From: an uncultured Bacteroidales bacterium
Lineage (GTDB): Bacteria; Bacteroidota; Bacteroidia; Bacteroidales; UBA10428
Length of the DNA: 64,000 nucleotides
Direction: 5' to 3'
Assembly: GCA_963717995.1 (NCBI GenBank)
Contig: CAVQXX010000015.1
Coordinates: 91,871 to 155,870 of the forward strand
Position numbers and translations under genes: made by a program. Below are positions 929 through 58,594 of this stretch, one piece after another (within the stretch, counting starts at the first letter, position 1; the number at the start of each line of letters is the position of its first letter). Under the pieces are notes generated by a model, which was not told the DNA's origin, ran no database searches, and worked only from the letters and a program-made list of their open reading frames with translations.

Positions 929-1934
929 ATGATTGAAAAGGTTGTATATTTAGAGGGGGTTGACCCACAGGCTTTTTATGGTTCGAATAACCGGAACTTC
1001 GAAAAATTAAAATCCTATTTTCCGAAACTAAAAATCGTTGCACGTGATTATGAAATAAAGGTGTTGGGTGAACCGTCAGAAATTAACCGTTTTGAGGAAG
1101 ATACTGACCGGATCATCGAATTCCTGCAGCGACGGAATATGCTTACGGAAGAGGATATTGAAAAGATCCTTCGTACACAGGACGATGAGATTGAAAGCTT
1201 CAATGAGCGCGAAGAGGATGTCCTAATCTTCGGGAATACCGGAAAGGTGATCAAGGCCCGGTCCGTAAACCAGAAAAAACTTGTAGAGGATTATAAAACC
1301 AACGACCTTTTATTTGCCATAGGCCCGGCCGGTTCGGGAAAAACATATACTGCCATTGCACTGGCTGTTCGGTCACTGCGCAACAAAGAGGTGAAGCGGA
1401 TTGTGCTTACCCGTCCTGCCGTTGAAGCTGGTGAGAAACTCGGTTTTTTACCCGGGGATGTAAAGCAAAAACTGGATCCTTATTTGCAGCCGCTCTATGA
1501 CGCTTTGCACGATATGATCCCGCAAAAAAAACTGGAAAGTTATATTGAAGAGGGCATCATTGAGATAGCACCCGCTTGCTTTTATGCGCGGTCGCACACT
1601 GGGTGATGCGGTGGTTATCCTGGATGAGGGACAAAATACGACAATCAACCAGCTAAAAATGTTCCTTACGCGCATGGGAAAAAACGCGAAGTTCCTTGTG
1701 ACCGGAGACATCACCCAGATTGACCTTCCTGAACGCCAGCAATCCGGATTGCTTAAGGCTCTGAGTTTACTCAGTAATATCAAAGGAATTTCCGTGATTG
1801 AATTCGACAAGGGTGATATTGTCCGGCACCGGCTGGTAAGGCATATTGTTGGGGCTTATGAGAGTGACAAGGGGCTTGCTAGGGACCAGGGACTGGGGAC
1901 AAGGGACAAGCAAGAAAATCCTGTTAAGGAATAA
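929..1934 (+). pseudogene. phoH: PhoH-like ATPase, frameshifted (possibly a sequencing indel)
   Basis: Walker A GPAGSGKTYTA in ORF 929-1606. ORF 1584-1934 starts with [20 protein letters not shown]. Removing one C from the CCC run at 1571-1573 restores the conserved [13 protein letters not shown]. The last ~20 codons are encoded by a GGGAC/GTGAC repeat array. Confidence 0.85.
1863..1913. repeat. GGGAC/GTGAC-type short tandem array inside the 3' end of phoH
   Basis: agtgacaaggggcttgctagggaccagggactggggacaagggacaagcaag. Same word family as 18200-18264 and (reverse complement) 33997-34028. Confidence 0.75.
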
Positions 1935-1968
1935 ATAGTTGGTAGAAGGAAGAAATAAATGAGATGGT

Positions 1969-1976
1969 TATCTTTG
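1969..1976 (+). promoter_or_regulatory. Candidate -7 box (TAnnTTTG) upstream of purC
   Basis: tatctttg, 31 nt upstream of the ATG at 2007. Confidence 0.4.
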
Positions 1977-2006
1977 CATAAATAAATAATTTATTAATTA
2001 GTCTGA

Positions 2007-2958
2007 ATGAAAGCAATTACCAAAACCAACTTTAACTTTCCCGGACAAAAAGAGGTCTATATTGGAAAAGTCAGGGATGTATATAATATTCAGGGAAAAT
2101 ACCTGGTGATGGTTGTCACCGACCGGATATCCGCTTTCGATGTGGTGTTGCCGAAGGGTATTCCGTATAAAGGCCAGGTATTAAATCAGATTGCATCGAG
2201 GTTCCTCGATGACACCGCCGATATTGTTCCAAACTGGAAAATATCGAGTCCCGATCCAATGGTAACCATCGGCCATTTTGCGGATCCATTCAAGGTGGAA
2301 ATGGTGATCAGGGGATATCTGACGGGACATGCATGGCGCGAGTATAAATCGGGAAAGCGGATCCATTTGTGGTGTTCCGATGCCGGAAGGAATGGTTGAA
2401 AATCAAAAATTTCCCAAGCCGATCATCACCCCTACGACAAAAGCCGATGAGGGACATGACCTTGATATTTCAAGGGATGAGATTATTTCCATGGGTCTTG
2501 CTTCAGCAAAGGATTATACCCTGCTTGAGCAGTATACCTACAGGCTTTTTGAGAAAGGCACGCAGATTGCCGCATCAAAAGGATTGATCCTTGTAGACAC
2601 CAAGTATGAATTTGGTAAAAAGGATGGTAAGATTTACCTAATCGATGAAATAAACACACCTGATTCATCCCGGTATTTTTATGCTGATGGCTATGAGGAA
2701 CGCATTAAAAAAGGCGAACAGCAGAAACAGCTTTCCAAGGAATTTGTGCGGCAATGGCTGATCGAGCATAATTTTCAGGGACTGGAAGGACAGCATGTAC
2801 CTGAATTGACGGATGAATTTGTAAGCCAGATTTCCGAAAGGTATATTGAATTATACGAAAACATCATCGGAGAGAAATTTCAACGTGCAGATCTGAGTGA
2901 TGTTCAGGCACGCATAGAACACAATATTATTACTGCACTGAAGGAGTTGGTTAAATAG
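2007..2958 (+). pseudogene. purC: Phosphoribosylaminoimidazole-succinocarboxamide (SAICAR) synthase, frameshifted (possibly a sequencing indel)
   Basis: ORF 2007-2399 (..[33 protein letters not shown]) and ORF 2329-2958 (..[43 protein letters not shown]..) are the two halves of PurC. The frame changes near 2350-2362. Confidence 0.85.
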
Positions 2959-2986
2959 TGTGTGGAAGGCATCAACCAATAAATAC

Positions 2987-4648
2987 ATGAAATCAAACCG
3001 CAACCCCATTGTTTTATTCATATTAGCGCTTTGCATAACAGGTTGCGATGAGGGCAATAAGAGTGCTAAACAATGGAAGGTTTTTGAAACCTCTTTTGAA
3101 TCTTCAGTAAGTTATGGCAATCCTTTTGTTGATGTACAGGTAGATGTGCTTTTCGAAAAAGATGGGAAGAGTTGGAAAATTCCCGCTTTCTGGGACGGCG
3201 ATAATCTATGGAAAGTTCGTTTTGCAGCGCCGGAAACCGGAGTCTATTCTTATCGGGTCGTTTCCAGTGACAAATCCAATAAAAGCCTGAACGGTGAAAA
3301 TAAATCTTTAAAGGTCTCTGCTTATCAAGGTGATAATACTTTGTATAAGCACGGGATGATAGGAATCAGCGAAGACAAACGTCATTTTGCCCATGCAGAT
3401 GGAACACCGTTTTTCTGGTTAGGTGATACCTGGTGGAAAAATCTTAGTAAAAGAATGACATGGGAAAGTTTTCAGGAACTTACTGCCGACCGGAAGAAAA
3501 AGGGATTTTCGGTTATCCAGATTGTCTGTGGCCCCTATCCCGACGAAGGTCCATTCCAGCCAGGCTGGGAAAACGAAGGTGGAATGCCCTATAAAACTCA
3601 GGATTTTAAGGTTTTGAATCCGGATTATTTCAAATATGCCGACAGGCGTTTGGAGCATCTGGTAGATGCAGAAATGGTGCCCGCCATAGTAGGTGCATGG
3701 GGAAGAGCAGATTGTGATGCTTTAAAAGCTGTCGGGGCAGAGGGATTGAAACGACATTGGCACTACCTGATCGCACGTTATGGAGCCTATCCGGTTGTTT
3801 GGATTCTTGGAGGTGAACTGGAGAACAATACAAAATGGGGCGAAGGTGTTTGGGCTGAAATTGCAAATTATGTTCGTGAAACAGATCCATATCAACATCC
3901 GATAACCGTGCATTCCGGTAGTGGTCGAAGAGGAGAAGAGGGTGATGATGTGGTCATTAGTTACGATATGGTGGGTGGAAGCCATGATCAGGAAATTGCA
4001 ATACATTCCGCACTTTCCAATTTCCAGGCAGCATACAATGTTAATCCGCCAATGCCTGTACTGGTCGGAGAAACTTGTTATGAAGGGCACATGCAACAAG
4101 GGTTTCAATATATACAGCGACATATGTTCTGGATGTATATGTTAAGCGGCGCCGCCGGACATACATACGGTGCTGCAGGGATTTGGCATGCAAGCATAGA
4201 AGGTGATCCTGGCGTTGCATCCGGAGCGTTCGGAGGCCGTAAGGTGTATGATTGGACAACCTGGCGCGAAGGGATGAACTATCCGGGTGCTGCTCAAATC
4301 AGTATCGGCAAGAAACTGTTGGAGAAGTATCCATGGTCACGTTTTGAACCACATCCGGAATGGGTGGAGGAGGGTTGTTTTGCAGCAGGTATCTCAGACG
4401 AGGTGCGATTCATATACCTTCCCAGGAGAAATATCTACAACTGGGAAGGTCCTGTGATCAAAGACCTTGATCCAACGGTTGACTGGCGGGTTTATTATTT
4501 TGATCCGGCTACGGGAAGGACATTTGAGCAGGATACAATCAAAGCCGGGCAGGCGAGTGTCTCCTCCCCATTGCAGCCGGTAAATTACAAAAGAGATGTG
4601 CCATCTCCTCAGGATTGGGTGATGGTATTTGAGCGGGTGAATCAATGA
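2987..4648 (+). CDS. Lipoprotein glycoside hydrolase with DUF5060-like Ig domain and DUF4038 (apiosidase-like, GH140-type) catalytic domain
   Basis: The ATG at 2987 gives a lipoprotein signal (..LALCITGC). The N-terminal beta-sandwich region (WKVFETSFES..WKVRFAAPETGVYSYRV) is followed by FFWLGDTWW and GGELENN-type motifs that I associate with the DUF4038/GH140 fold. The ORF-track start at 2960 is a GTG. Confidence 0.6.
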   Translation: MKSNRNPIVLFILALCITGCDEGNKSAKQWKVFETSFESSVSYGNPFVDVQVDVLFEKDGKSWKIPAFWDGDNLWKVRFAAPETGVYSYRVVSSDKSNKSLNGENKSLKVSAYQGDNTLYKHGMIGISEDKRHFAHADGTPFFWLGDTWWKNLSKRMTWESFQELTADRKKKGFSVIQIVCGPYPDEGPFQPGWENEGGMPYKTQDFKVLNPDYFKYADRRLEHLVDAEMVPAIVGAWGRADCDALKAVGAEGLKRHWHYLIARYGAYPVVWILGGELENNTKWGEGVWAEIANYVRETDPYQHPITVHSGSGRRGEEGDDVVISYDMVGGSHDQEIAIHSALSNFQAAYNVNPPMPVLVGETCYEGHMQQGFQYIQRHMFWMYMLSGAAGHTYGAAGIWHASIEGDPGVASGAFGGRKVYDWTTWREGMNYPGAAQISIGKKLLEKYPWSRFEPHPEWVEEGCFAAGISDEVRFIYLPRRNIYNWEGPVIKDLDPTVDWRVYYFDPATGRTFEQDTIKAGQASVSSPLQPVNYKRDVPSPQDWVMVFERVNQ

Positions 4649-4680
4649 AACAACTTAACAACTAACAACAATCAACTAAT
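4649..4680. repeat. (CAAC[TA]A)-type simple array filling the gap between two convergent stop codons
   Basis: aacaacttaacaactaacaacaatcaactaat lies between the stop at 4646-4648 (+) and the stop at 4676-4678 (-). Confidence 0.7.
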
Positions 4681-6858: not shown

Positions 6859-6944
6859 CCTTGAAATTTTTAATGCAGAGCAAAGATATAAAAAGATGGG
6901 GGGATGAAATTAAAATGATGCTGAATATAAAGGAGGGGATTAGT

Positions 6945-7011
6945 TGAGCGTAGTCTGGAGACTACGCTCAGCACTGAGACTACGCTCAGCACTGAGACTA
7001 CGCTCAGCCCT
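6945..7011. repeat. 12-bp inverted repeat followed by three copies of an 18-bp tandem unit (GAGACTACGCTCAGCACT)
   Basis: tgagcgtagtct (6945-6956) is the exact complement of agactacgctca, which is present in each of the three units at 6958-6975, 6976-6993 and 6994-7011. Confidence 0.9.
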
Positions 7012-7052
7012 GAACATCGTAAATATTCAATTATTGTATAATTAAGGATCAA

Positions 7053-8368: not shown

Positions 8369-8398
8369 GCAGTTTTGCAGTTATGCAGTTATGCAGTT
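8369..8398. repeat. (GCAGTT[TA]T)n 8-bp tandem array, reverse complement of the CTGCATAA family
   Basis: gcagttttgcagttatgcagttatgcagtt, 30 nt downstream of the GH13 stop. Confidence 0.85.
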
Positions 8399-8428: not shown

Positions 8429-10282
8429 CTATAAAATTTCCACAATCAGTACCGATTTCGGCTCAATTGAGAATTTCGATAAATCCACATCAATGCCGGT
8501 AATAATATCCCTTCCAATCCTTCTGCCAGACAGGCATTCCTCAAAACGGACTACATCGGGCGTTAATTTTTCTCCTGAATTATTCATCATCACCATTACC
8601 GTTTTTTTCTCATCCATCCTGAAATACACATACATGTTATCGCGGGGAATAAAATGGATCATTTTACCATTTTGCAAAACCGGATTTGATTTACGATACA
8701 GCAGCAGTTTATTGATGTAGGCGAAAGCCTCGTTTTCTTCAGCGGTTCTTCCCGAGGCTTTGAAGGCGTTCCGTGAATCTCCCGCCCAGCCGCCCGGAAA
8801 ATCACGCCGGATATCGCCGTCGCCCTTGTTTTTCTGGCCACCCATCATGATCTCTGTACCATAATATAATTGAGGAATTCCTCTTGTTGTAAGCAGATGG
8901 GCCACTCCCATCTTATACTTTTTCATATCATATCCGATTTGCTCAGTAAAACGCTGGGAATCATGATTGTCAAGAAAGATCAGCATGTTGTACGGATCTG
9001 CAAAAAGGTAATCCAGCACGTAAACATTATAAAAGCGAGACAGGCCCTGGTTTCCATCCTCATTGAATGCAGTTCCGAAAGCATCCTCAAGGGGAAAATC
9101 CATAACAGCAGGGAGTTGGGAATCATACCCGTCAAAGGTTTTTGATCCCGTCTGCCAGTAAGCATTTTCAGCAGGATTATGCTGCCAGCATTCACCAACA
9201 ATATTTAACCAGGGATATTCTTCCCTTATGGCCTTGCTCCATTCGGCAGTTTTATGTTTATCATTGTAAGGATAGGTATCCACCCTTAATCCGTCAAGTT
9301 CAAGATATTCAATCCAGAAAACAGCGAACTGCTTAAAATAGGTAAGTACGAAAGGATTATGCTGGTCCATATCAGGCATGGATACATCAAACCAGCCTTC
9401 TTCATTCAGCATTTTATCTTTAGAGGACGCATGCGGATCATTCCAGGTTGCGATGGTATAGTTGGTGCGGGTAAATTCGGGAAAACGATGCACCCAGTCA
9501 TCCATTGGCAGATCTTTCATCCACCAGTGCTCAGATCCGCAATGGTTGGGAACCATATCCATGATCAGCTTAATACCTCTTTTGTGACATTCGTCTGCAA
9601 GGCGCACATAATCCTGATTTGTTCCATATCGCGCGTCCACCTTATAATAGTCTGTAATCGCATAGGTATGATAGGAATATGAAGGCATATTATCTTCAAG
9701 TAACGGGGTTGTCCATATTGCAGTGATCCCAAGATCTTTCAGGTAATCCAGGTGATCGATGATCCCTTGAATATCACCGCCATGCCGTCCGTTTGGGTCT
9801 GTCCTGTTCCATTTCTCTTTTAAATCGGTAGCTGAGTCATTTGCAGTATTTCCGTTGGCAAATCGATCAGGCATAAGCAGGTAGATGACATCTTCGGGCC
9901 CAAAACTTTTTCTTTCGGCAGATCCGGATTTACGATCTTTCAATTCGAAATTATAGGTGAGTAAAATCTTTTTATCCCTTATAAAGTCAATTTTCATTGT
10001 TCCGGCCCTGGCATCATCTCCTATGAAGAGATTCAGAAAAAGATAGTTGGCATTTCCTGAACGGGCGATCGTTCTGATAGTTACACCTGGGTAATTGATC
10101 ACCGGGTTCAGGTTGGCGATACCATTGCCATGGATGGTTAACATCAGATCCGGGTTCTTCATGCCTGTCCACCACATGGGAGGATCAACATGGCTGATCT
10201 TACTGTTTTCGGCTGCTGGCAATGAAGAACAGATAACAAAAAAGAAGATGATTGCACTGGTTGTTTTATGGTATGATTTCAT
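8429..10282 (-). CDS. GH13 alpha-amylase family enzyme (cyclomaltodextrinase/neopullulanase-like), secreted
   Basis: GH13 conserved regions GIKLIMDMVPNH, DGLRVDTYPY, VGECW, IFLDNHD. The ATG at 10282 gives a signal peptide and lies 5 nt after the GH65 stop. The ORF-track start at 10324 would overlap the upstream gene. Confidence 0.85.
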   Translation of the reverse strand: MKSYHKTTSAIIFFFVICSSLPAAENSKISHVDPPMWWTGMKNPDLMLTIHGNGIANLNPVINYPGVTIRTIARSGNANYLFLNLFIGDDARAGTMKIDFIRDKKILLTYNFELKDRKSGSAERKSFGPEDVIYLLMPDRFANGNTANDSATDLKEKWNRTDPNGRHGGDIQGIIDHLDYLKDLGITAIWTTPLLEDNMPSYSYHTYAITDYYKVDARYGTNQDYVRLADECHKRGIKLIMDMVPNHCGSEHWWMKDLPMDDWVHRFPEFTRTNYTIATWNDPHASSKDKMLNEEGWFDVSMPDMDQHNPFVLTYFKQFAVFWIEYLELDGLRVDTYPYNDKHKTAEWSKAIREEYPWLNIVGECWQHNPAENAYWQTGSKTFDGYDSQLPAVMDFPLEDAFGTAFNEDGNQGLSRFYNVYVLDYLFADPYNMLIFLDNHDSQRFTEQIGYDMKKYKMGVAHLLTTRGIPQLYYGTEIMMGGQKNKGDGDIRRDFPGGWAGDSRNAFKASGRTAEENEAFAYINKLLLYRKSNPVLQNGKMIHFIPRDNMYVYFRMDEKKTVMVMMNNSGEKLTPDVVRFEECLSGRRIGRDIITGIDVDLSKFSIEPKSVLIVEIL

Positions 10283-10286
10283 GGTT

Positions 10287-12581
10287 TTACTTTTTATCCT
10301 GAACACACTGTACCGGATTTCCATTGATTTCTACTTCAAGGGGTTCACCTTCAATCAAACCAACATTCACTTTCTTTTCAGAAATGCTTACCTTCAGTTT
10401 TCTTCCCCTGTAATTAATGTAAAAGGAAAGTGATTTCCATTTCTTCGGGAGATTGGGATTAAAGCTGATCATTGTTTCTCTTATCCGCATTCCGCCAAAG
10501 CCAAGAACGATCGACATCCAGGTACCGCCCATACTGGTAATATGAAGTCCCTCATCCACTTCCCGGTTATAATCATCCAGGTCAAGCCTCGAAGTACGAA
10601 GATAAAGTTCATAAGCATCGTCAAATTTACCGATCCGGTTAGCCAGTATCGAATGAATGCAAGGGGAAAGAGAAGATTCATGAACTGTGCGGGGTTCATA
10701 AAACTCATAATTCCTGCGGATTGTTTCTGTGGAAAATTCATTTTCAAAACAGAAAATGCCCTGAAGAACATCGGCCTGCTTAATGAAGACCGAGCGGAGG
10801 ATACGGTCCCAGGACCAGTGCTGGTTTATAGGTCTTTCCGCAGGATCCAGTTCTGACGCCATTCGCTGTTCCTTATCCATAAAACCTTCCTGTTGAAGAA
10901 ATATTCCCTGTTCTTTCAATTCAGGGAAAAACATATTGTCAAGAATATGCTGCCAGGATTTTGTTTCCGTTTCAAATCCGAATTTGGTCTTTTGAATAAT
11001 ACGATCATATTCTCCCGGGTAGTTTTTCTTTACATGATCGATGGCTTCCAGTGTATATCGCATTGTCCAGCATGCCATTTTATTGGTATACCAGTTGTTA
11101 TTCACATTGTTTTCATATTCGTTGGGCCCGGTAACCCCAAGCATAACATATTGTCCCTTTGATTCCGACCAGTTTATTCTCTGTTTCCAGAACCTTGAAA
11201 TGCCAATCAGCACTTCCAGGCCATATTCAGCAAGGTAATTCTTATCGCCGGTATAGCAGATGTAATTGTAAATGGCATAGGCAATCGCTCCGTTCCTGTG
11301 TATTTCTTCAAATGTGATCTCCCACTCGTTGTGGCACTCTTCACCATTCATGGTTACCATCGGATAAAGGGCTGCTCCTGAATGAAAGCCAAGTTTTTCA
11401 GCATTTTCAATTGCCTTCTGCAGCTGCTTGTACCTGTATATCAACAGGTTTCGGGCCACTTTTTCATTTTCGGTGCTCAGGTAGAACTGGAAAAGAAAGG
11501 CTTCTGTATCCCAATAGGTGCTTCCACCATACTTTTCCCCGGTAAATCCTTTAGGGCCGATATTAAGTCGCTCATCGTGACCGGTATACGTCTGGTTCAG
11601 CTGAAAAACATTGAACCGGATCCCTTGCTGGGCCAAAGGATCTCCTTCGATTATAATGTCGCTGTTTGACCAGTTTTCTTCCCATTTGGCTGAATGCTCT
11701 GCAAACAGCCTGTCGAATTTCTTCTCAAATGCCCTGTGGACCGAATGCTTGCATTTTTCAACAATCCGGTCATGGGCATAATTCAACGAGTCAAGCACTG
11801 CAGCATATTTATAAAGGACTATTTCCTCACCGGCAGATGCGATGACACCGGCCCTGTTTCCTGCAAAAGTTTCAGTTTGTTCCGGATGGAAGGTTGCAGG
11901 AATAGATTTGCCGTTTACCTTTATCTCCACCATCATGGAAAAGCAAACTTCGAAAGCCGATTTACGGGTGCGGGCGTGAAGAAAGGATATGCCCGGTTCT
12001 GACCCGGTATTCAATATGTCCCAGAATTTCTCATCGTAATTCGAATCCCTGTTAACCACATTGCCTTCGATAAATGAAAAAAATTCAATTTCACCCGAAA
12101 AATTCAACGGTTTAACCGCGTACCGGATGGCGCCAATTTCATCGTCTGCCATGCTGAGAAACCTCCTGGCCCTGATCTGCAGTTTCTTTCCTGATTTGAG
12201 TTCTGCCGTAAATGAACGTTCCAGGTAGCCCTGTTTCATGTTTAACTCCCGGACGAAATCAGAGATCTTGCAGGTATGGAGGTCAAGATCTTCGCCATCG
12301 ACATGCACATGGATGCCGATCCAGCTAGGGGCATTGGGGACTTTTGCAAAGTATTCGGGATACCCGTTTTTCCACCAGCCAACACGGGTTTTGTCGGGAT
12401 AGTAAATCCCAGCAATATAAGTTCCCTGCAACGATTCGCCGGTATAGTTTTCTTCAAAATTGGCCCTTTGACCCATGTGGCCGTTTCCCAGACTAAAAAT
12501 GCTTTCGGAAGCTTCATGTTTCTGTGGATCAAAACCGTCTTCAATAACGCTCCATTCGTTCGTTTTATAATAACTTTTCAT
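10287..12581 (-). CDS. GH65 family disaccharide phosphorylase (maltose phosphorylase-like)
   Basis: 764 aa. The N-terminus (NEWSVIEDGFDP..ESIFSLGNGHMGQRANFEE) and central (alpha/alpha)6 region are typical of GH65. Sits between beta-phosphoglucomutase and GH13 genes. Confidence 0.85.
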   Translation of the reverse strand: MKSYYKTNEWSVIEDGFDPQKHEASESIFSLGNGHMGQRANFEENYTGESLQGTYIAGIYYPDKTRVGWWKNGYPEYFAKVPNAPSWIGIHVHVDGEDLDLHTCKISDFVRELNMKQGYLERSFTAELKSGKKLQIRARRFLSMADDEIGAIRYAVKPLNFSGEIEFFSFIEGNVVNRDSNYDEKFWDILNTGSEPGISFLHARTRKSAFEVCFSMMVEIKVNGKSIPATFHPEQTETFAGNRAGVIASAGEEIVLYKYAAVLDSLNYAHDRIVEKCKHSVHRAFEKKFDRLFAEHSAKWEENWSNSDIIIEGDPLAQQGIRFNVFQLNQTYTGHDERLNIGPKGFTGEKYGGSTYWDTEAFLFQFYLSTENEKVARNLLIYRYKQLQKAIENAEKLGFHSGAALYPMVTMNGEECHNEWEITFEEIHRNGAIAYAIYNYICYTGDKNYLAEYGLEVLIGISRFWKQRINWSESKGQYVMLGVTGPNEYENNVNNNWYTNKMACWTMRYTLEAIDHVKKNYPGEYDRIIQKTKFGFETETKSWQHILDNMFFPELKEQGIFLQQEGFMDKEQRMASELDPAERPINQHWSWDRILRSVFIKQADVLQGIFCFENEFSTETIRRNYEFYEPRTVHESSLSPCIHSILANRIGKFDDAYELYLRTSRLDLDDYNREVDEGLHITSMGGTWMSIVLGFGGMRIRETMISFNPNLPKKWKSLSFYINYRGRKLKVSISEKKVNVGLIEGEPLEVEINGNPVQCVQDKK

Positions 12582-14837: not shown

Positions 14838-14908
14838 CTAATGTGCTAATGTGCTAATGTGCTAATATGCTAATATGCAAATGTGCTAATGTGCTGATGT
14901 GGTAATGT
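14838..14908. repeat. (GTGCTAAT)n 8-bp tandem array, about 9 units with variants
   Basis: ctaatgtgctaatgtgctaatgtgctaatatgctaatatgcaaatgtgctaatgtgctgatgtggtaatgt. Confidence 0.9.
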
Positions 14909-15048: not shown

Positions 15049-15453
15049 TTATTCGGATACCGAAGCGGTGTATTTAACCGATTGTTCAATTTGCGAGTTC
15101 AGTTGATCAAGGTTTTCCAGGGCAACTGCCAGTTCAAAATTTTCGTTCACGGCAGGTGAAACATACTCTGCTTCCAGGGCGGCTGAAGAGAACAAATCGT
15201 TCAGTCTTGATTCGGCAACAAATACTTCAAATGCTGCTGAATTTTCTGACAAAGCAGGTACATTAAATGCAACGGCCTTTTCAAGTTCAGTGTTATACAT
15301 GGCCAGGCTATTGGAAGCTGCCTGTATTTCATTCATTTCTGAACTGGCATTTTTTCCTGAAGCTGCTTGCATCGGCAGAAGGGAAGCAAAGAGGACGGTT
15401 ACGGAAGCTAAGGTTACTTTAGCAATCTGGTTTAAGTTTTTTGTTGTTTTCAT
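15049..15453 (-). CDS. Small secreted hypothetical protein (A/E/N/S-rich, probably helical)
   Basis: 134 aa ORF with a signal peptide (..VLFASLLPMQAAS). It has its own -7-like box (15495-15502) and an intrinsic terminator (14981-15012). I recognise no family. Confidence 0.6.
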   Translation of the reverse strand: MKTTKNLNQIAKVTLASVTVLFASLLPMQAASGKNASSEMNEIQAASNSLAMYNTELEKAVAFNVPALSENSAAFEVFVAESRLNDLFSSAALEAEYVSPAVNENFELAVALENLDQLNSQIEQSVKYTASVSE

Positions 15454-15626: not shown

Positions 15627-15649
15627 AACAATGAACAATGAACAATGAA
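15627..15649. repeat. (AACAATG)3 7-bp tandem array
   Basis: aacaatgaacaatgaacaatgaa. Confidence 0.85.
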
Positions 15650-15680
15650 AAGGAGGGAAAAACTAAAAGTGGATAACAAT

Positions 15681-15728
15681 ATGCTAATGTGCTAATGTGC
15701 TAATGTGCTAATGTGCTAATGTGCTAAT
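15681..15728. repeat. (GTGCTAAT)n 8-bp tandem array, 6 units, same orientation as 14838-14908
   Basis: atgctaatgtgctaatgtgctaatgtgctaatgtgctaatgtgctaat. Confidence 0.92.
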
Positions 15729-15806
15729 TGGGCTGACGCATCTGCAGATCTGCAAAACTAAAGAATATCAAACTGCAGAACTTTTCTTCGGCTGCAATAC
15801 TTCCTT

Positions 15807-15856
15807 ACTGCATAACTGTATAACTGCATAACTGCATAATTGCAGAACTGCAGAAC
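15807..15856. repeat. (CTGCA[TG]AA)n 8-bp tandem array
   Basis: actgcataactgtataactgcataactgcataattgcagaactgcagaac. It ends 2 nt from the corrected DUF1015 stop codon (15859-15861). Confidence 0.9.
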
Positions 15857-15858: not shown

Positions 15859-17106
15859 TTATTCCAGGCGGTGCAGCACCAGCCCGCTTCGTAGCTTGGG
15901 CTCAAACCATGTTGTCTTGGGTGGCATAATACTTGCCAGTATCTGCAATCCGCATGAGCTGATCCATTGTAACAGGGAACAGGGCAAAGGCGACTGCCAT
16001 TTCACCGCTGTCCACCCGGCGCTTTAATTCAGAAAGTCCCCTGATTCCGCCCACAAAATCTATCCGGTTTGAGCTTCTGAGATCTTTTATGCCCAGCAAA
16101 TGATCGAGTACGTGTTCAGAAAGCAATGTCACATCAAGGCATCCGATTGGATCGTTATCATTGAATGTTCCGGTCTTGGCCTCCAGCGCGTACCATTTGC
16201 CATTGAGATACATGGCAAATTCATGGGCCTGGGCGGGCTTGTATTCATTATTTCCTTTAGGGACTACAATAAATGTTTTTGCAAGTTTTTCAAGAAACTG
16301 GGAAGGCGTATTTCCATTCAGATCCTTTACCACACGGTTGTAATCGAAAATTGACAACTGGCTGGCAGGAAAATGTACCGCAAGAAAATAGTTATACTCT
16401 TCATTCCCTTTATGACCGGGATTATCTTCTTTTCGTTCTTCACCTACATGGGCCGCAGCGGCTGTGCGATGGTGGCCATCAGCAATATAGGTAAATGGTA
16501 TATCATGTTGAAAAATAGATTCAATTCGTTGGATAATATTTTTTTCCGATATTATCCACAGCTGATGATGAATGGCATCTTCAGTTTTAAAATCATATTC
16601 AGGTTTATCTGAAATTACCTTATTCACCAGCCTGTTTATTTCTTCATGATCAGGATAGGCAAAAAATACGGGTTCGGAATTGAAATTTGTGACACGTATA
16701 TGGTTTTTCGGTCTTCTTCTTTTTCAACCCTTGTTAATTCATGTTTCCGGATCACATTGTTCAGGTAATCAGCCACGGAAGCGCAGGCCACAAGGCCATA
16801 CTGGGTTCTTCCCCACATGGTTTGTGCATAAATGTAAAAACATGGAACATCATCCTGCACAAAGATTTTTTTATCAATTAACGATTGCAGGTTGGCTTTA
16901 GCTTTTTCATATACTGCTGATGCATAATGGTCAGTTTCCGGAGGGAGGTCAATCTCGGATTTGATTACATGGTAAAAGGAATTGGGATTCCCCCTGGCTT
17001 CCACTGAAGCCTCTTCTGAAGATAATACATCATATGGACGGGAAGCAATTTTTGCTGCCAGGTCCTTTCCAGGCCGGAACCCTTTGAATGCTTTGATAAT
17101 TGCCAT
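15859..17106 (-). pseudogene. DUF1015 family protein, two frameshifts (possibly sequencing indels)
   Basis: The N-terminus MAIIKAFKGFRP..SRPYDVLSSEEA is typical of DUF1015. Removing one base from the T5 run at 16704-16708 gives ..KNHIRVTNFNSEPVFFAYPDHEEINRLVNKVISDKPEYDF... A second frame change near 15925-15940 restores the C-terminus ..MPPKTTWFEPKLRSGLVLHRLE with its stop at 15859-15861. Confidence 0.8.
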
Positions 17107-17214: not shown

Positions 17215-18135
17215 CTAATTCACCTGGAAGGTTTTGTCACCTTTGGTAAGGAAGTTAACGATCTGCCTGGCAGCTGCCAGGCCTGCATTGATATTGGCTT
17301 CCTCTGTCTGGGCGCCCATCTTTTTTGGTGTAGCATAATATCGTGCACCATATTCTGTTTTGATTTGTTCCTGGCAATCAGGTGCTACATCGGTAACATA
17401 CCTGAAATCTTTCCGTTCGGCAAACATTTTCAGCAATGACGGTTCATGAATGATTTCCTTCCGTGCTGTATTAACGAGGGTAGCACCTTCGGGCATTAAA
17501 TTCAGAAGGTCGAAATTAATGGATTCTTTTGTTTCCTTGTTTGCGGGAAGATTGACTGAAATATACTGGCATTTGCGGTATAAATCCTCTGCAACGGAAA
17601 CATATTTTACACCGTCGTTTTCAATAACTATCTTATCCACGAAAGGATCATGCCCAAATACATCCATTCCAAATCCCTTGGCAATCCTGGCCACGATCCG
17701 GCCAATATGGCCATATGCATGAATTCCCAGCGTTTTACCCCGTAATTCAACACCTGAACTGCCATTGTAGAAATTACGGTTCAGAAAGATCATCGCTCCA
17801 AAAGCAAGTTCAGCAACTGCATTCGCGTTCTGTCCGGGTGTGTTCATTACCACAACTCCTTTGGCAGAGGCTGCCTTCAGATCGATATTGTCATAACCGG
17901 CACCTGCCCTCACCGCAATTTTAAGCTTGCCGGCTGCCTTGATCACCTCCTCATCGATGATATCACTGCGAACAATGATGGCATCTACATCTTTCACAGC
18001 CTCGAACAGTTGTTCTTTGGTTGTATACTTTTCCAGGAGCTTCAATTCAAATCCGGCATTTTTTATGATCTCGCCGATTCCATTCACCGCCACTTTTGCA
18101 AATGGCTTGTCAGTTGCTATAAGAACAGTATGCAT
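17215..18135 (-). CDS. serA: D-3-phosphoglycerate dehydrogenase / D-isomer 2-hydroxyacid dehydrogenase
   Basis: 306 aa; NAD-binding region GIHAYGHIGRIVA..; 2-hydroxyacid dehydrogenase pattern; directly downstream of serC. Confidence 0.75.
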   Translation of the reverse strand: MHTVLIATDKPFAKVAVNGIGEIIKNAGFELKLLEKYTTKEQLFEAVKDVDAIIVRSDIIDEEVIKAAGKLKIAVRAGAGYDNIDLKAASAKGVVVMNTPGQNANAVAELAFGAMIFLNRNFYNGSSGVELRGKTLGIHAYGHIGRIVARIAKGFGMDVFGHDPFVDKIVIENDGVKYVSVAEDLYRKCQYISVNLPANKETKESINFDLLNLMPEGATLVNTARKEIIHEPSLLKMFAERKDFRYVTDVAPDCQEQIKTEYGARYYATPKKMGAQTEEANINAGLAAARQIVNFLTKGDKTFQVN

Positions 18136-18199
18136 GTTTTTATGTATTTAAGATTAACGTAAGGTAATTATTAAGCACCGGTTATCGAGAGATAATTTT

Positions 18200-18264
18200 G
18201 GTGACTGGTGACTGGTGACAAGTGACCGATTTTCACTCGTCACTTGTCACTCGTCACTTGTCAC
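18200..18264. repeat. (GGTGACT)/(GTCACT[CT]) arrays in inverted orientation, forming a 12-bp perfect stem
   Basis: ggtgactggtgactggtgacaagtgac .. tcactcgtcacttgtcactcgtcacttgtcac. gtgacaagtgac (18215-18226) is complementary to gtcacttgtcac at 18239-18250 and at 18253-18264. The array touches the serC stop codon (18264-18266). Confidence 0.9.
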
Positions 18265-19334
18265 TAGTTACCAGCCTCAAACTCCTTCATGGCATCCACA
18301 AGTGCCTTTACGCCCTCCACAGGCATGGCATTATAAATGGAAGCCCGGAATCCGCCAACTGACCGGTGACCCTTTATACCTACCAGCCCCTTTGCTTTGG
18401 CAAGTTCCAGGAACTTTTCTTCCATATCCTTATATTCCGGTTTAAAGACAAAGACAACATTCATCAAAGATCTGTCTTCTACATTGGCAAGGGGCGACAT
18501 AAACAGCTTGTTTCTGTCAATTTCATTGTACAGCATTTCTGCCTTTTCAACATTGATTTTGTAAATTGCCTTCAGGCCACCCAGATTTTTCAGCCATTTC
18601 AGGGTTTGCAGGCAGGCATAAATAGCTACACAGGGTGGTGTATTGTACAAAGAATCGTTTTCAGCATGGACCTTATAGCTCAGCATGGTTGGAACAGGTC
18701 TTGCCGATTTTTCAAGCAGGCTGTCCTTGATGATGGCAAAGGAAACGCCTGAGGGACCAAGGTTCTTTTGTGCACCGCCATATATGAGGGCATATTTCGA
18801 AATATCAACAGGCCGGCTGAGGATATCAGATGAAGCATCCGCAATGACCGGAACAGGAGAATTCAAATCCTCCTTCATTTCAGTACCATAAATTGTATTG
18901 TTGGTAGTCACATGCAGATAATCCACATCTGAAGGTATGGTGAAACCTTTGGGAATAAAGGTGTAATTCTGGTCTTTCGAAGAACCCAGCACCTGTACCT
19001 CTCCAAAAAATTTGGCTTCCTTAATTGCCTTTGATGCCCATGAACCTGAATCAACATAAGCTGCTTTCTTGCCTAAGAAATTATAGGGGATCATGGTAAA
19101 CTGTAAACTGGCTCCTCCCTGAAGGAAAAGAATGGAATATCCGGAAGGTATCCCCAACAATTCCCTGAATAAGTCCTTAGCTTCTTTTAAAATGGCTTCG
19201 AAATCCTTGCTGCGATGAGATATTTCCATAATTGACATCCCACTGCCATTAAGGTTAAGAACTGCTTCCGCTGTGTTTTTCAGTGTGAATTCAGGCAATA
19301 CTGATGGACCCGGATTAAAGTTGTACTTTTTCAT
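18264..19334 (-). CDS. serC: Phosphoserine aminotransferase
   Basis: 356 aa; [15 protein letters not shown].. N-terminus and ..[14 protein letters not shown].. PLP-lysine region typical of SerC. Confidence 0.9.
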
Positions 19335-19375
19335 AGGAGCTTATTTTATTTGTTAAATTATTAACAACAGGTTTT

Positions 19376-19383
19376 CAAATTTA
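19376..19383 (-). promoter_or_regulatory. Candidate -7 box upstream of serC
   Basis: Plus-strand caaattta (minus-strand taaatttg), 42 nt upstream of the start at 19334. Confidence 0.4.
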
Positions 19384-19425
19384 AAAAATATTGTTTGATG
19401 TGAAAATACTAACAGAGATTATGGA

Positions 19426-20401: not shown

Positions 20402-20435
20402 TTAATTTTTTACTACCGCCGAAGGCGGTTGATTC

Positions 20436-33996: not shown

Positions 33997-34028
33997 GCTT
34001 GTCCCTGGTCCCTTGTCACTCGTCCCTC
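33997..34028. repeat. GTCCC/GTCAC-type short array overlapping the 3' end of the DoxX/MauE-like gene
   Basis: gcttgtccctggtcccttgtcactcgtccctc, a reverse-complement relative of 1863-1913. The stop codon (34016-34018) and the last three codons lie inside it. Confidence 0.7.
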
Positions 34029-47191: not shown

Positions 47192-47230
47192 AATGGCAAA
47201 TTTACGATTTATCGTTTAGTATGGAGTAAA

Positions 47231-47391
47231 AAAGTTTAAAAAGTACGCCTTCGGCATTTTGAGAATTTACCGCGAAGGACTCAAAGGATTTTTCCCGAAG
47301 AGATGCCTTCGGCACACAAAGGAAACCCAAAGGAATTTCTGCCACAAAGACTCAAAGACACAAAGGATCTCATTGCATTCGATTAACCGTT
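47231..47391. repeat. 161-bp dispersed repeat, copy A
   Basis: Aligns without gaps to 58316-58476 with 7 mismatches in 161 by my manual alignment. Contains CTTCGG-type hairpins (acgccttcggc, ccgaag..cttcgg) and CACAAAG/ACTCAAAG words. Confidence 0.92.
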
Positions 47392-47402
47392 AAAGAAAAT
47401 AC

Positions 47403-47434
47403 TGATTACCGATTACCGAATACCGATTACCGAC
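47403..47434. repeat. (GATTACC)n 7-bp tandem array abutting the arfB stop codon
   Basis: tgattaccgattaccgaataccgattaccgac; the arfB stop codon is at 47435-47437. Confidence 0.88.
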
Positions 47435-47848
47435 TTATTCATCCATCTTCCGGAGTGCCTTTTTTCGGGACTGTAGTTTTTTTGATTCTATTCTTCTTTC
47501 TTTTGACGCCAGGGTAGGTCGCGTTGGTTTACGCTTCCTGACAGGCATCAGGGCCTTTTGAAGTAATTTATAAAACCGTTCCGTAACTTTTTTCTTATTA
47601 GCTATCTGTGAACGTTCGGTTTGTGAAACAAGGATTAGAAATCCTTCCTTATTGATCCTGTTGCCCAGGGCAGATTGAATCTTTGCCTTTTCTTCATCAT
47701 TCAGCAAGGAAGAACCAGCAATGTTATACCGAAGCTCAATGCGGGTATTCACCTTATTCACATTCTGTCCGCCAGGGCCACTGCTCCGTGATGATGAATA
47801 AATCAATTCCCCCGACAGATCTCTATCCTGAATACCGGCCTCAAACAT
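47435..47848 (-). CDS. arfB: Alternative ribosome-rescue factor ArfB (peptidyl-tRNA hydrolase, GGQ family)
   Basis: 137 aa; ..SSGPGGQNVNKVNT.. GGQ motif and a basic C-terminal tail. Confidence 0.85.
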   Translation of the reverse strand: MFEAGIQDRDLSGELIYSSSRSSGPGGQNVNKVNTRIELRYNIAGSSLLNDEEKAKIQSALGNRINKEGFLILVSQTERSQIANKKKVTERFYKLLQKALMPVRKRKPTRPTLASKERRIESKKLQSRKKALRKMDE

Positions 47849-52573: not shown

Positions 52574-52595
52574 TGTTGAAAAATAAATCATCGCT

Positions 52596-56189: not shown

Positions 56190-56294
56190 AATGTTGAAAT
56201 CAGGAAATAGCGTAATTTGCCCGCAAAGGTAATGAAATATGTTGATCTGGTTATAAAAACCCTGGGAAATACGGACAATAAGAAGGTAAAGAAA

Positions 56295-58205
56295 ATGTAT
56301 TATTTTTACCTGATGTATAAATCATGGCTGCTGCTGATATCGGCTTTCTTTGTTATATATTCAGAGGATATACTGGGACAAAATGAGCCAAAGGATACGC
56401 TGAGCGTTATTGAAGTTATAACTCAACGCAAGGACTCCATGGTTCGCAATCCGGGAGCATCTTTGGGAAAATGGAATCATCTCTCCGACAGCCTTTTTTT
56501 ATCAACTCGCCCAAACCGTTTCAATCGTGAATTAAACAACCTGCTGCAGAAATTTTATCATTCACACCCTAAAAACAAGAAAATACCGGTCACAAACGCT
56601 AACCTCACTGCATATGATGGATTGATTATCCGCAAAATTCAATTCAAAACACTAAATGTGTTTTCCGGCTCCATTGAGGATACGAGTTATGTTCCGTCTA
56701 ACTGGACTGAAAAGGCTGTAACTGCAATTCACTTTAATACACGTGAGAAGATCATCAGGAAAAATCTGCTTTTCCAGAAGGATGACAGGCTTGATGTTTT
56801 CCTGGTGGCTGAAAATGAACGAATGATCAGGGAACTACCCTATATCCGGGACGCAAGATTTCTTATAAATACTATTCCGGGATCGCCTGATTCAATAGAT
56901 ATAATTTTGCTGACGAAAGACCTGATCCCACTCGGTTTCAGTGCTGAACTCTCCAGGCCGGATGCAGGAAATGCGAGTATCGGATATTATAACATATTTG
57001 GGTATGGACACCAGTTTGAAACCACGACCTATTGGGACGGAAGGCATACGCCATTTTTAGGGTTTAAACTCCACTATGGGATTCCTAATATACAAGGTAC
57101 ATATATCTCATCAGACCTGGAATACACCCACCGCTGGAATACCGATATGAGCAGGATACGGTTGGAACGCAATTTCAGGACTGTTGGCATAAAATATGCC
57201 GGTGCCGTTGAACTTACGAATGCTGATCTGCAGCGCGATCTTGTTTTACAGGATACAACAATAGATAATATTACCTGGAAATATACCAACTATGATTTCT
57301 GGGTAGGCAGATTATTTAGTGTGAAAAAAGGAAATACTGCAGGAACCCGCAAGGGATTATTTCTTTCCGGCCGGGCCTTTTATAACTACAACAGAGAGAC
57401 ACCGCAAACGGAAGAACATAATTATTATGCATTTCAGGACAAAACCATGCTTCTTTTTTCCACAGGATACACATACCGTGGTTTTCGAAAAGATAATATG
57501 ATCTTTACATTCGACAAGATAGAGGACGTACCGTACGGTTATATGTTTGAAATAACATCGGGATATGAATGGGGACAATATGTTGGCAGACCCTACTTCG
57601 CGGCCAATATATCATTCGGCAAATACATGGCCCGTCATTACTTATATGGTCAGTTCGGATACGGGACTTTTGTCCATAATCATTCCCTTGAACAGGGAAC
57701 AATTCATTTGCAGTTAAAGGGTTTTTCAAATCTGAATACCTGGGGTATGTTTTTCCAAAACAGGAATTTTTTTACGTTTACTTATTTGAATGGAATAAAC
57801 AGGTTTAAGGATGAGTTTACCCGTTTGGAAAATAAGGGCGGCATACCCGGACTTTACAGCCCGTCCTTAAGGGGCAATGAAAAATTTGTTCTGAATCTGG
57901 AATCTGTTTTGTTCAGTCCTTACCGCTTGCTGGGATTTCGTTTTGCCTTTTTTGCATCAGTTGACCTTGGGTTCATCAAAACAGAAAATCTCAGTTTCTA
58001 TGAGTCAACGCCTTATTCAGGATTGGGACTTGGAATCCGGATCAGAAATGAACGACTTGTTTTTGATACATTTGAGATCAAGTTTTCAATCTATCCGGGA
58101 ATGCCTGCAGATGCAGATCCCATGTATATCAATGCAGGCAGCATTCCCCGCATCAGATCGAATGTTCTTTTTCCGGACAAACCAACGATACTGGAATATA
58201 ATTAG
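56295..58205 (+). CDS. Omp85/BamA-like outer-membrane beta-barrel protein with one POTRA-like domain
   Basis: POTRA-like segment (IIRKIQFKTLNVFSG..REKIIRKNLLFQKDDRLD..ENERMIRELPYIRDARFLI..IDIILLTKD). Omp85-type ..YYNIFGYGHQFETT.. and an alternating-hydrophobic barrel region. Start uncertain (ATG at 56295 or 56313; the ORF-track TTG is at 56217). Confidence 0.6.
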   Translation: MYYFYLMYKSWLLLISAFFVIYSEDILGQNEPKDTLSVIEVITQRKDSMVRNPGASLGKWNHLSDSLFLSTRPNRFNRELNNLLQKFYHSHPKNKKIPVTNANLTAYDGLIIRKIQFKTLNVFSGSIEDTSYVPSNWTEKAVTAIHFNTREKIIRKNLLFQKDDRLDVFLVAENERMIRELPYIRDARFLINTIPGSPDSIDIILLTKDLIPLGFSAELSRPDAGNASIGYYNIFGYGHQFETTTYWDGRHTPFLGFKLHYGIPNIQGTYISSDLEYTHRWNTDMSRIRLERNFRTVGIKYAGAVELTNADLQRDLVLQDTTIDNITWKYTNYDFWVGRLFSVKKGNTAGTRKGLFLSGRAFYNYNRETPQTEEHNYYAFQDKTMLLFSTGYTYRGFRKDNMIFTFDKIEDVPYGYMFEITSGYEWGQYVGRPYFAANISFGKYMARHYLYGQFGYGTFVHNHSLEQGTIHLQLKGFSNLNTWGMFFQNRNFFTFTYLNGINRFKDEFTRLENKGGIPGLYSPSLRGNEKFVLNLESVLFSPYRLLGFRFAFFASVDLGFIKTENLSFYESTPYSGLGLGIRIRNERLVFDTFEIKFSIYPGMPADADPMYINAGSIPRIRSNVLFPDKPTILEYN

Positions 58206-58223
58206 TTGATTGTTGATAGTAGG

Positions 58224-58304
58224 AATGAATTATGAATTATGAATTATGAATTATGAATTATGAATGATGAATTATGAATGATGAATTTGAGGTTTGAGGT
58301 TTGG
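58224..58304. repeat. (TGAAT[TG]A)n 7-bp tandem array (about 9 units) followed by (GAGGTTT)2
   Basis: aatgaattatgaattatgaattatgaattatgaatgatgaattatgaatgatgaatttgaggtttgaggtttgg, starting 18 nt after the Omp85-like stop. Confidence 0.9.
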
Positions 58305-58315
58305 TGTGAAGTAAT

Positions 58316-58476
58316 AAAGTTTAAAAAGTACGCCTTCGGCGTTTTGAGAATTTACCGCGAAGGACTCAAAGGATTGTTCCCGAAGGGATGCTTTCGGCAC
58401 ACAAAGGAAACTAAAAGGAATTTCTGCCACAAAGACTCAAAGACACAAAGGACCTCATTGCATTCGATTAACCGTT
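58316..58476. repeat. 161-bp dispersed repeat, copy B
   Basis: Same orientation and length as 47231-47391. The 71-aa ORF at 58278-58493 is a translation of this repeat and is not called as a gene. Confidence 0.92.
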
Positions 58477-58495
58477 TAAGAACATTGAAATAGCT

Positions 58496-58557
58496 AATCT
58501 GCGAAATCCGTGAAAATCTGCGAGAAAAAAGACCCGTTGAATAAATATTAATCCGCG
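58496..58557. repeat. ATCTGCGA-type ~61-bp dispersed repeat, copy 2
   Basis: aatctgcgaaatccgtgaaaatctgcgagaaaaaagacccgttgaataaatattaatccgcg aligns with 32126-32186. Confidence 0.8.
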
Positions 58558-58568
58558 AAATCCGGACG

Positions 58569-58594
58569 ACTGCAAAACTGCAAAACTGCAGAAC
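58569..58594. repeat. (CTGCA[AG]AA)n 8-bp tandem array
   Basis: actgcaaaactgcaaaactgcagaac, 10 nt from the stop of the lipoprotein gene (58605). Same family as 15807-15856 and 8369-8398. Confidence 0.85.

Follow-up and report, generated by a model that had tools for sequence, protein, structure and literature searches.

Among the simple repeats of bacteria, heptamers show the strongest over-representation. The lineage of an uncultured Bacteroidales bacterium provides an unusually rich case: here we analyze a 64,000-nt stretch of its DNA (assembly GCA_963717995.1, contig CAVQXX010000015.1, positions 91,871 to 155,870; hereafter the window) for tandem arrays of short units located at the 3' ends of genes. 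The positional pattern concerned is already published for two heptamers, (GGGAATC)n in Xanthomonas and (GGGGAYT)n in Nostoc/Anabaena (Rehm et al. 2015, PMC4692102). About 90% of those repeats are intergenic, with an average distance of 28 nt from the upstream open reading frame (ORF) and of 160 nt to the next one; most lie 0–50 bp from a stop codon or overlap it, and the G-rich strand is the coding strand (PMC4692102). They are scarce between divergent genes, some occur as inverted pairs, and no function was found; they vary strongly in length and sequence between close relatives and reside in comparatively stable genomic regions (PMC4692102). Triplicated heptamers and octamers are over-represented classes of simple sequence repeats (SSRs) in prokaryotes (Huang and Mrazek 2014, PMC4060949). 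As quoted in PMC4679880 and PMC4692102, Mrazek et al. (2007) defined long SSRs (LSSRs) with units of 5–11 nt, which are mostly non-coding and among which heptamers are the most over-represented. According to the same quotations and PMC4060949, Mrazek and co-workers proposed slippage tied to a polymerase contact length of about 7 nt. Three repetitive heptanucleotides are known from Calothrix PCC 7601 (PMC4692102). Direct repeats of TAACTGA were described in Beggiatoaceae, Cyanobacteria and five Bacteroidetes; this unit contains stop triplets, stops all frames and overlaps only the very end of an ORF, and other heptamer repeats occur in intergenic regions of Gramella and Aequorivita (MacGregor 2015, PMC4679880).

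In the window, Tandem Repeats Finder returned 48 rows before filtering. After merging of overlaps and restriction to periods of 5–10 with at least 2.8 copies and a score of at least 34, there remained 18 arrays with periods of 7–10, nearly all of them 7 or 8. Thirty first-order Markov resamples of the window gave a mean of 0.23 arrays and a maximum of 2, and the concatenated intergenic DNA of the window gave 0.10 per resample. Seventeen of the 18 arrays are intergenic in a window of which 12% is intergenic, and they occupy 11 gaps, every one co-directional or convergent. A preliminary description of this DNA, made from the sequence alone, had reported micro-arrays at gene 3' ends. These are real, and the program recovered each of the arrays named there (1881–1910, 4649–4679, 8369–8398, 15807–15856, 18233–18265, 33998–34028, 47400–47433, 58225–58287 and 58569–58595) together with further ones at 14838–14908, 15627–15649, 15678–15728, 18199–18219, 20300–20404, 32068–32153, 47343–47365 and 58428–58450. 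Outside the window, all sequence consists of serC neighborhoods of different genomes (loci numbered from L001), and many array-bearing gaps are thus orthologous and not independent; gene calls follow a longest-ORF heuristic, and some assemblies are frameshifted. In the clade of the window organism (51 loci, 638 kb), 80 arrays are intergenic and 6 lie in coding sequence. Among 63 clade arrays, 35 have a period of 7 and 23 of 8, followed by 6 (three arrays), 9 and 10 (one each); 7 is the mode both here and in more distant Bacteroidales, with 8 close behind in the clade, where 5, 6, 9 and 10 seldom occur. Perfect higher-order periods of 14 nt were called at 18233–18265 and 33998–34027. By their excess and their positions the arrays are strongly non-random. 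They share with the heptamer/octamer class of LSSRs head-to-tail units within the 5–11 nt range above chance, a non-coding bias in both the window and the clade set, stop-side placement, depletion in divergent gaps and variation between genomes. Rfam 15 had no match in the whole window at the gathering score and, at a relaxed threshold, a sole match at chance level in 58150–58650; a scan for tRNA and tmRNA genes in the window found none.

Arrays lie next to stop codons and keep away from starts. Consistent with what had been described before, no comparable array in the window lies near a start codon (the minimum array-to-start distance is 64 nt), and none of the 8 divergent gaps contains an array. 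In the initial set, which comprises the window and L001–L022, divergent gaps hold 5 arrays versus 14.6 expected from their length; 18 arrays lie within 10 nt of a stop versus 3.5 expected, and 5 within 30 nt of a start versus 12.1 expected. In the enlarged clade set, the array block is nearer to the stop than to the start in 31 of 35 co-directional gaps, with median distances of 8 nt from stop to block and 116 nt from block to the next ATG. Bacteroidota promoters use the element TAnnTTTG, and boxes of this type show a sharp peak 40–60 nt 5' of the ATG (76 of 127); a scan for σ70-type promoters was uninformative here, with hit counts equal to those of shuffles. Because of the TAnnTTTG peak, the −33 element and upstream sequence, we took about 90–100 nt before each start to be occupied. 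When this zone was excluded and each block was placed uniformly in the rest of its own gap, 16.7–18.8 blocks were expected within 10 nt of a stop, and 18 were observed. Promoter exclusion alone thus reproduces the observed stop adjacency, and a process that targets stop codons is unnecessary. The slot that the arrays fill lies between a stop codon and the functional element that follows. Orthologous gaps upstream of serC confirm this slot-filling: the 100–125 nt before serC are conserved in all relatives, and variable arrays lie between that stretch and the preceding stop. As a separate feature, the serC leader (around 19335–19425, and orthologues in L001–L017) contains a TAAATTTG box and then, immediately 5' of the ATG, the inverted repeat GTTGTTAAttgTTTAACAA; to judge from the sequence, this may be an operator or a 5' untranslated region hairpin regulating serine biosynthesis genes.

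We consider it probable that the arrays belong to the LSSR class of heptamers and octamers, generated by slippage and filtered by selection. Replication slippage or unequal exchange would give rise to them and alter them by one unit (7–8 nt) or two units (14 nt) at a time, the starting material often being local sequence, for example an arm of a terminator hairpin. They would be retained only where selection tolerates them, that is, from the stop codon to about 90–100 nt before the next ATG. Between convergent genes the tolerated slot would extend to the other stop. In a minority of cases an array and its inverted counterpart would form long hairpins that probably serve as terminators or 3' stabilizers as a by-product. 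Under this model, we infer, no function of the arrays is required. The individual arrays and array-like features of the window are as follows.

1881–1910, plus strand: (AGGGACA)×4.3 in the 3' end of the phoH fragment; no stop in any sense frame, translated.
4649–4679, no strand assigned: (AACAACT)×4.3 occupying the entire 27-nt interval between two convergent genes; it adjoins the TGA of the plus-strand gene (end at 4648) and provides the TAG of the minus-strand gene (4676–4678).
6942–7013, minus strand: perfect hairpin GAGCGTAGTCTC / GAGACTACGCTC, fold z = −4.3; its 5' arm (sense of the upstream gene) is present in three tandem copies of 18 nt at 6958–7013.
8369–8398, minus strand: (GCAGTTAT)×3.8 of the CTGCAWAA family, 30 nt past the stop of the alpha-amylase-family gene 8429–10324.
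14838–14908, minus strand: (CTAATGTG)×8.9 beyond the canonical terminator of gene 15049–15453; the next start codon is 72 nt away.
15627–15856, minus strand: block of three arrays 3' of the DUF1015 gene.
15627–15649, minus strand: (AACAATG)×3.3 within this block.
15678–15728, minus strand: (AATGTGCT)×6.4 within this block.
15807–15856, minus strand: (ACTGCATA)×6.2, ending 2 nt from the corrected DUF1015 stop at 15859–15861.
18199–18265, minus strand: inverted array pair at the serC stop, in sense (GTGACRA)×4 then (GTCACYW)×4; the part at 18233–18265 was called as (TCACTCG)×4.7.
20292–20404, minus strand: CACAAAGA / TCTTTGTG inverted arrays, then a 22-nt×1.9 repeat, 3' of gene 20436–24941; related to the dispersed element D3 (see below).
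32068–32153, minus strand: TCTCGCTGA×3.1 and AAATCTGCGA×3 downstream of the major facilitator superfamily gene 32226–33449.
33998–34028, minus strand: GTCCC/GTCAC array, in sense GAGGGAC GAGTGAC AAGGGAC CAGGGAC, encoding the last codons and the stop of a MauE-like protein.
47400–47433, minus strand: (GATTACC)×4.9, in sense GGTAATC, unit called as TACCGAT; 1–2 nt past the arfB stop.
58225–58303, plus strand: (ATGAATT)×9, which spans 58225–58287, then (TTTGAGG)×2.6; begins 19 nt past the stop of gene 56217–58205.
58485–58595, minus strand: AATCTGCG-type words at 58497–58560 and (ACTGCAAA)×3.4 at 58569–58595; the latter lies 9 nt from the stop of gene 58605–59288.

All of the positions relative to stop codons noted earlier hold. 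The (GATTACC)n array ends at 47433 and adjoins the arfB stop at 47435–47437, the serC stop at 18264–18266 begins inside the array 18233–18265, and the gap between the two convergent stops is filled as described. The reported distance of 2 nt to the DUF1015 stop applies to an array ending at 15856 and holds only after correction of a frameshift close to the end of the gene, the true stop at 15859–15861 being set by the conserved C-terminus CTGGAATAA of relatives. Three other arrays said to begin shortly past stops do so at measured distances of 9, 19 and 30 nt (genes ending at 58605, 58205 and 8429). Two of the adjacent ORFs, 20436–24941 (1501 aa) and 56217–58205 (662 aa), have no Pfam match.

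Turnover of the arrays is very fast, as orthologous gaps carry differing units or no array. The gap between serC and serA contains (GTGACRA)4 and inverted (GTCACYW)4 in the window, (GTGACRA)4, (TACGATT)2 and (CATTCAC)5 in L009, (GAGACAA)3 and (GATTTAC)3 in L002, TACGAGT units in L001, and two GTCACC remnants in L003. In L081, whose serC is 94% identical, this gap measures 46 nt and has no array, and in the outgroups (L004–L023) it measures 28–65 nt, likewise with no array. Units drift by single substitutions followed by re-amplification, as in the series GACGAGT, TACGAGT, TACGATT and in the change from GTCACCA to ATTCACC. A scan of metagenomes for near-identical strains of the window organism found nothing closer than 94%, and other species of the clade were therefore used to assess variation within species. 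Between L005 and L091 there are 10 substitutions in 11.3 kb, and between L005 and L092 there are 3 in 9.4 kb (99.9% identity); in both comparisons the only indel is one 8-nt array unit, located in the TCAAATCA array at the stop of a comB-like gene. A larger change separates L104 (150–262) from L019 (7885–8005), contigs 99.8% identical over 9.6 kb: the same gene pair is separated by unlike gaps of about 105–115 nt, with (AATGAAC)5 (AGCCTGC)3 (CTAACTT)3 in the former and two GC-rich hairpins in the latter. This gap is a hotspot of replacement at the strain level.

These data bear on two of the origins suggested at the outset. Slippage or insertion directed to stop codons had been proposed; the slippage part is supported by the unit-step indel, the 14-nt periods and the stepwise drift, while targeting is not needed once promoters are excluded. 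The second suggestion, contingency loci whose changes in length switch gene expression by phase variation, agrees with the unit-step polymorphism between conspecific strains (L005 versus L091 and L092) and with periods that are not multiples of three. Against it stands where the arrays are: they follow stops, at least 64 nt away from starts, none lies in the promoter-to-promoter gaps of the window, and placement in promoter spacers, 5' regions or internal coding sequence, as in phase-variable genes, was not found. Moreover, the neighboring genes are of the housekeeping type (3' of serC, arfB, phoH and the comB-like gene), and the two in-frame cases touch only residues past the conserved domain. 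Phase variation is thus a very unlikely explanation, even though length does change by whole units.

Similar repeats occur in other members of the order. The closest serC matches are metagenome-assembled genomes at 93–96% identity, mostly from the MFD soil and sediment series. Intergenic DNA contains 1.32 arrays per kb in the clade, or about one array per 0.75 kb, and 0.35 per kb in distant Bacteroidales (1.3 Mb), and a 50-kb sample of E. coli has none in its intergenic portion. The mention of similar repeats in other Bacteroidota in the preliminary description proved correct, with period-7 arrays found directly after serC in Bacteroides and Mediterranea and at other loci. A further concern raised there was that the arrays might be artefacts of assembly. 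In favor of an artefact of the long-read metagenome-assembled genome, one may point to frameshifts in the housekeeping genes phoH, purC and DUF1015, which are typical of long-read indel errors, and to a short-read contig of the same strain that stops inside the serC array. However, equivalent arrays at the same and other loci are present in independent short-read assemblies from different studies (megahit, SPAdes, JGI; L002, L005, L008, L010, L086, L091, L096, L101, L104), and the units are coherent and evolve in a tree-like manner between genomes, which makes an artefact exceedingly improbable. The frameshifts themselves split phoH (929–1934), purC (2007–2958) and, twice, DUF1015 (15859–17106); Pfam matches continue exactly across the breaks, which are most likely indel errors of the long-read assembly rather than signs of pseudogenes, and L009 shows breaks of the same kind. 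Outside the window, an exact-protein look-up found an identical SerC only on a Logan contig from ERR12035938 (3860 nt), which ends 27 nt past the serC stop in the array hairpin and suggests that such arrays disrupt short-read assemblies.

A function at mRNA 3' ends was another suggestion of the preliminary description. According to this idea, the arrays would be selected just past the stop as sequence-independent terminators or stabilizers, or as landing pads for RNA-binding proteins with a footprint of 7–8 nt. Some array pairs do fold into hairpins of very high stability at the very sites at which canonical terminators are present in relatives. For the serC pair, which has no T-run, the folding energy is −40.9 kcal/mol (z = −6), and for the CACAAAGA inverted pair it is −40.6 kcal/mol (z = −5). 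Past the fasciclin gene, a hairpin GGGATGCC...GGCATCCC with a T-run is present in the window; at the same site of the orthologue, L001 and L003 carry tandem GATGCTG/GATACTG units and inverted copies (−58 kcal/mol, z = −8.3), and these are among the few array hairpins followed by T-rich sequence. By their sequence they look like an amplified terminator stem, and under the slippage model they would be instances of seeding from terminator arms. Likewise, the triplicated 18-nt arm at 6958–7013 is a hairpin arm being amplified, a similar duplicated arm is present in L012, and (AGCCTGC)3 of L104 corresponds to the L019 hairpin GCCTGCCGGCAGGC. Also in favor of a function at 3' ends, genes with conserved canonical terminators (17215–18135 and 25113–25862) have no arrays, sense strands show a purine polarity that is repeated in an independent set, one gap retains arrays across the clade (both discussed below), and RNA-seq showed most of the analogous Xanthomonas repeats to be transcribed (PMC4692102).

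As a general role, by contrast, 3'-end function is not supported. A hairpin-forming inverted partner is present for only 7 of the 69 arrays and lacking for the other 62, and plain arrays fold no better than shuffles, with z between 0 and −1. The arrays have no common motif or composition, some units lacking C and others G; they are present or absent among genomes whose flanking protein is 93–96% identical, L081 being one example; they also occur within operons with an ancestral gap of 28 nt; promoter exclusion alone accounts for their position; and no regulatory role was found by Rehm et al. (PMC4692102). Selection for a 3'-end function is therefore rather unlikely to explain the arrays as a whole. 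The few very stable array hairpins, as judged from predicted folds, may nevertheless terminate or stabilize transcripts. Rho utilization (rut) sites were also considered and rejected: overall, the sense strands are neither C-rich nor G-poor, the stop-adjacent arrays are on average purine-rich, and some sense arrays are free of C, for example (ATGAATT)9 and (AGTGAAT)10.

The position of the arrays also shapes the ends of genes and proteins. Neither 7 nor 8 shares a factor with 3, and an array whose unit includes TAA, TAG or TGA therefore presents a stop in each reading frame within three repeats. Such arrays can extend as far as the end of a gene, or into it, and then supply the stop, and those without a stop triplet (GGGACAA) are read through as short C-terminal tails. 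Array-borne stops are found in serC (TAG|TGAC in the window, CAG TGA in L009) and at both convergent stops in 4646–4678, and the final residues of SerC vary among relatives in step with the arrays. Translations bear out the earlier statement that GGGAC/GTCCC arrays encode the last residues of PhoH and of the MauE-like protein: the Pfam match of PhoH ends at residue 93 of 116, followed by an array-encoded tail of 23 residues, and the MauE-like protein ends in the array-encoded sequence ...LRDE*. A sense stop triplet is present in 21 of 25 stop-adjacent arrays versus 18 of 32 distal ones. This excess is largely expected from ascertainment, because arrays lacking a stop are read through and counted as coding, and a selected backup stop in all frames was rejected on these grounds.

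Several observations weigh against slippage and tolerance as a complete account. Although the arrays had been described as unrelated-looking, 9 unit pairs lie within one mismatch of each other versus 1.03 expected. The GGGAC/GTGAC, CTGCAWAA, CTAATGTG, CACAAAGA and AATCTGCG families are each represented at two or three loci of the window. Such recurrence at non-homologous loci is not predicted by local slippage, and even a flanking detail, CTGCAGAACWT, is shared beside the stops at 15859 and 58605; the recurring families need shared seeds, ectopic conversion or dispersal. The sharp preference for 7–8 nt over 5, 6, 9 and 10 is left unexplained, and the purine polarity of the arrays, which exceeds the baseline of 0.51 in array-free gaps, is accounted for only indirectly. 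Finally, the gap after gene 20436–24941 carries arrays in most clade members despite complete turnover of its sequence, and array-like sequence could be maintained there.

The recurrence of units is what spread by copy and paste would explain, whether arrays or their seeds were carried by a small mobile element or by ectopic gene conversion favoring DNA just 3' of genes. The window in fact contains a dispersed element, D3, in two full copies.

47214–47400, minus strand: D3 copy 1 (187 nt) with a CACAAAGA mini-array at 47343–47365.
58299–58485, minus strand: D3 copy 2 with a CACAAAGA mini-array at 58428–58450.

The copies are 93% identical and are built of CTTTGTG/CTTTGAG words with three small hairpins of the CCGAAGG type; read on the minus strand, the element ends in a small hairpin and TTTTT. 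Each copy follows a minus-strand gene and is flanked by arrays; those between stop and element differ between the two copies. Partial copies are found after gene 20436–24941 (20323–20378) and in orthologous positions of L001 (8973–9020), L081 (4194–4239) and L009 (8882–8927). D3 has no Rfam match, and its overall fold is not significant (z = −0.6; two full copies only), so that a structured RNA was rejected. Copying is also suggested by a 52-nt stretch common to 32115–32166 and 58485–58536 (83% identity; AATCTGCGAAATCYGYGAAAATCTGCGAG, an A-run and CCCG), which has the same orientation to the upstream gene at both sites and may, from its sequence, be another small dispersed element. Furthermore, the CTAATGTG family is present on both sides of gene 15049–15453 (134 aa, no Pfam match), at 14838–14908 and 15678–15728, and in L003 only upstream of its orthologue, an arrangement that hints at copying over about 800 nt. 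The replacement of a whole segment between the 99.8%-identical strains would fit as well.

On the other side, most units are specific to one locus, and orthologous arrays change by unit drift and re-amplification, not by clean insertion. An array-free relative shows degenerate proto-repeats at the very spot (L017 versus L005). Terminal inverted repeats and target-site duplications were not noticed at array borders, and no transposase was seen, although no genome-wide transposase search was made. The arrays are direct repeats of diverse units, which sets them apart from repetitive extragenic palindromic (REP) sequences, bacterial interspersed mosaic elements (BIMEs) and miniature inverted-repeat transposable elements; only the separate D3 is dispersed. 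We thus regard copy and paste as an unlikely origin of the arrays in general. Apart from the arrays, ORF 25993–27948 (minus strand) contains a 405-nt×4 tandem repeat (26270–27873, 96% identity) that encodes four fasciclin domains, and the identity of the repeats suggests recent domain amplification or concerted evolution. The protein also has a C-terminal sorting domain for type IX secretion; this and the TAnnTTTG boxes agree with an origin of the window in Bacteroidota.

Strand polarity, period and persistence would be explained together if the arrays resulted from a process linked to the 3' ends of transcripts. In the clade, the purine fraction of the sense strand is 0.59 in stop-proximal and 0.45 in distal arrays (Mann-Whitney P 0.003–0.004), and the same values were obtained in distant Bacteroidales (0.59 versus 0.45, P = 0.02). 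The 5' arms of canonical terminators have purine fractions of 0.61 and 0.64, and this shared strand polarity supports terminator arms as frequent putative seeds of arrays. It is tempting to speculate that slippage is associated with termination, in which case the step of 7–8 nt would mirror the RNA:DNA hybrid or the polymerase footprint. Alternatively, selection might favor a repetitive spacer whose sequence is immaterial and which would serve as raw material for terminators or as a platform for Bacteroidota RNA-binding proteins. Either version would account for the sense purine polarity seen across phyla, the preference for 7–8 nt and the persistence of arrays despite turnover; we nonetheless hold such a process to be improbable, and slippage filtered by tolerance to be the better account.

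Should polarity and period reflect a mechanism coupled to termination, the arrays would offer a view onto the birth of terminators, although the present evidence does not require such a mechanism. Under slippage with tolerance, the geometry reduces to one rule, that arrays fill the slot between stop and promoter, with turnover visible at the level of strains. The polarity and the link to terminator-hairpin arms replicate in other Bacteroidales and agree with the published Xanthomonas and Nostoc data. On the practical side, arrays appear to break short-read assemblies, and they shift annotated stops and C-terminal tails, and they could be used as markers for strain typing.

How do the arrays compare with known systems? 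REP sequences and BIMEs are enterobacterial extragenic palindromes that are abundant just past stops and between co-transcribed genes; a single conserved, imperfect palindrome is dispersed in the form of REPs, which are mobilized by REP-associated tyrosine transposases (RAYTs). By analogy, the hairpin-forming array pairs could act as stabilizers of mRNA 3' ends; in contrast to REPs and BIMEs, the arrays are head-to-tail, built from many unrelated units and mostly non-palindromic. The short tandemly repeated repetitive (STRR) heptanucleotide sequences of cyanobacteria, reportedly described by Mazel and colleagues in 1990, resemble the arrays in that several heptamer families occur in tandem in the non-coding DNA of one genome, with phylum and units differing here. 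ACTGGGG, found in one window array, is what we take to be the complement of the STRR1 unit. The TAACTGA repeats are intergenic tandem heptamers as well, but they consist of a single unit in fixed orientation a few nucleotides upstream of starts, whereas the arrays avoid starts and comprise many units. With the LSSRs the arrays share tandem repetition above chance, a predominance of heptamers followed by octamers, and a mostly non-coding location; the geometry between stop and promoter zone, the strand polarity and the link to terminator arms go beyond the LSSR surveys in so far as these are quoted in the papers cited above.

The Xanthomonas and Nostoc repeats correspond to the arrays in being tandem heptamers (2–26 units) with stop-side geometry (here with medians of 8 and 116 nt), frequent placement 0–50 bp from a stop codon or across it, the G-rich strand as coding strand, depletion in divergent gaps, some inverted pairs, variation among close relatives and no identified function. 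Unlike them, the arrays have no dominant unit: a dozen or more families exist, and octamers are nearly as common as heptamers. G-tracts able to form a quadruplex are confined to the GGGAC family, four G3 tracts being present only at 1881–1910, and the many other units set the arrays apart from G-quadruplex heptamers. In contrast to the comparatively stable regions reported for those repeats, entire segments with arrays are exchanged here between strains that are 99.8% identical, and the host is an uncultured Bacteroidales bacterium. New with respect to the published pattern are thus the host lineage, the many unit families, the near-equal use of octamers and the finding that promoter exclusion suffices for the geometry, together with unit polymorphism and segment replacement at the strain level and the link between terminator arms and polarity.

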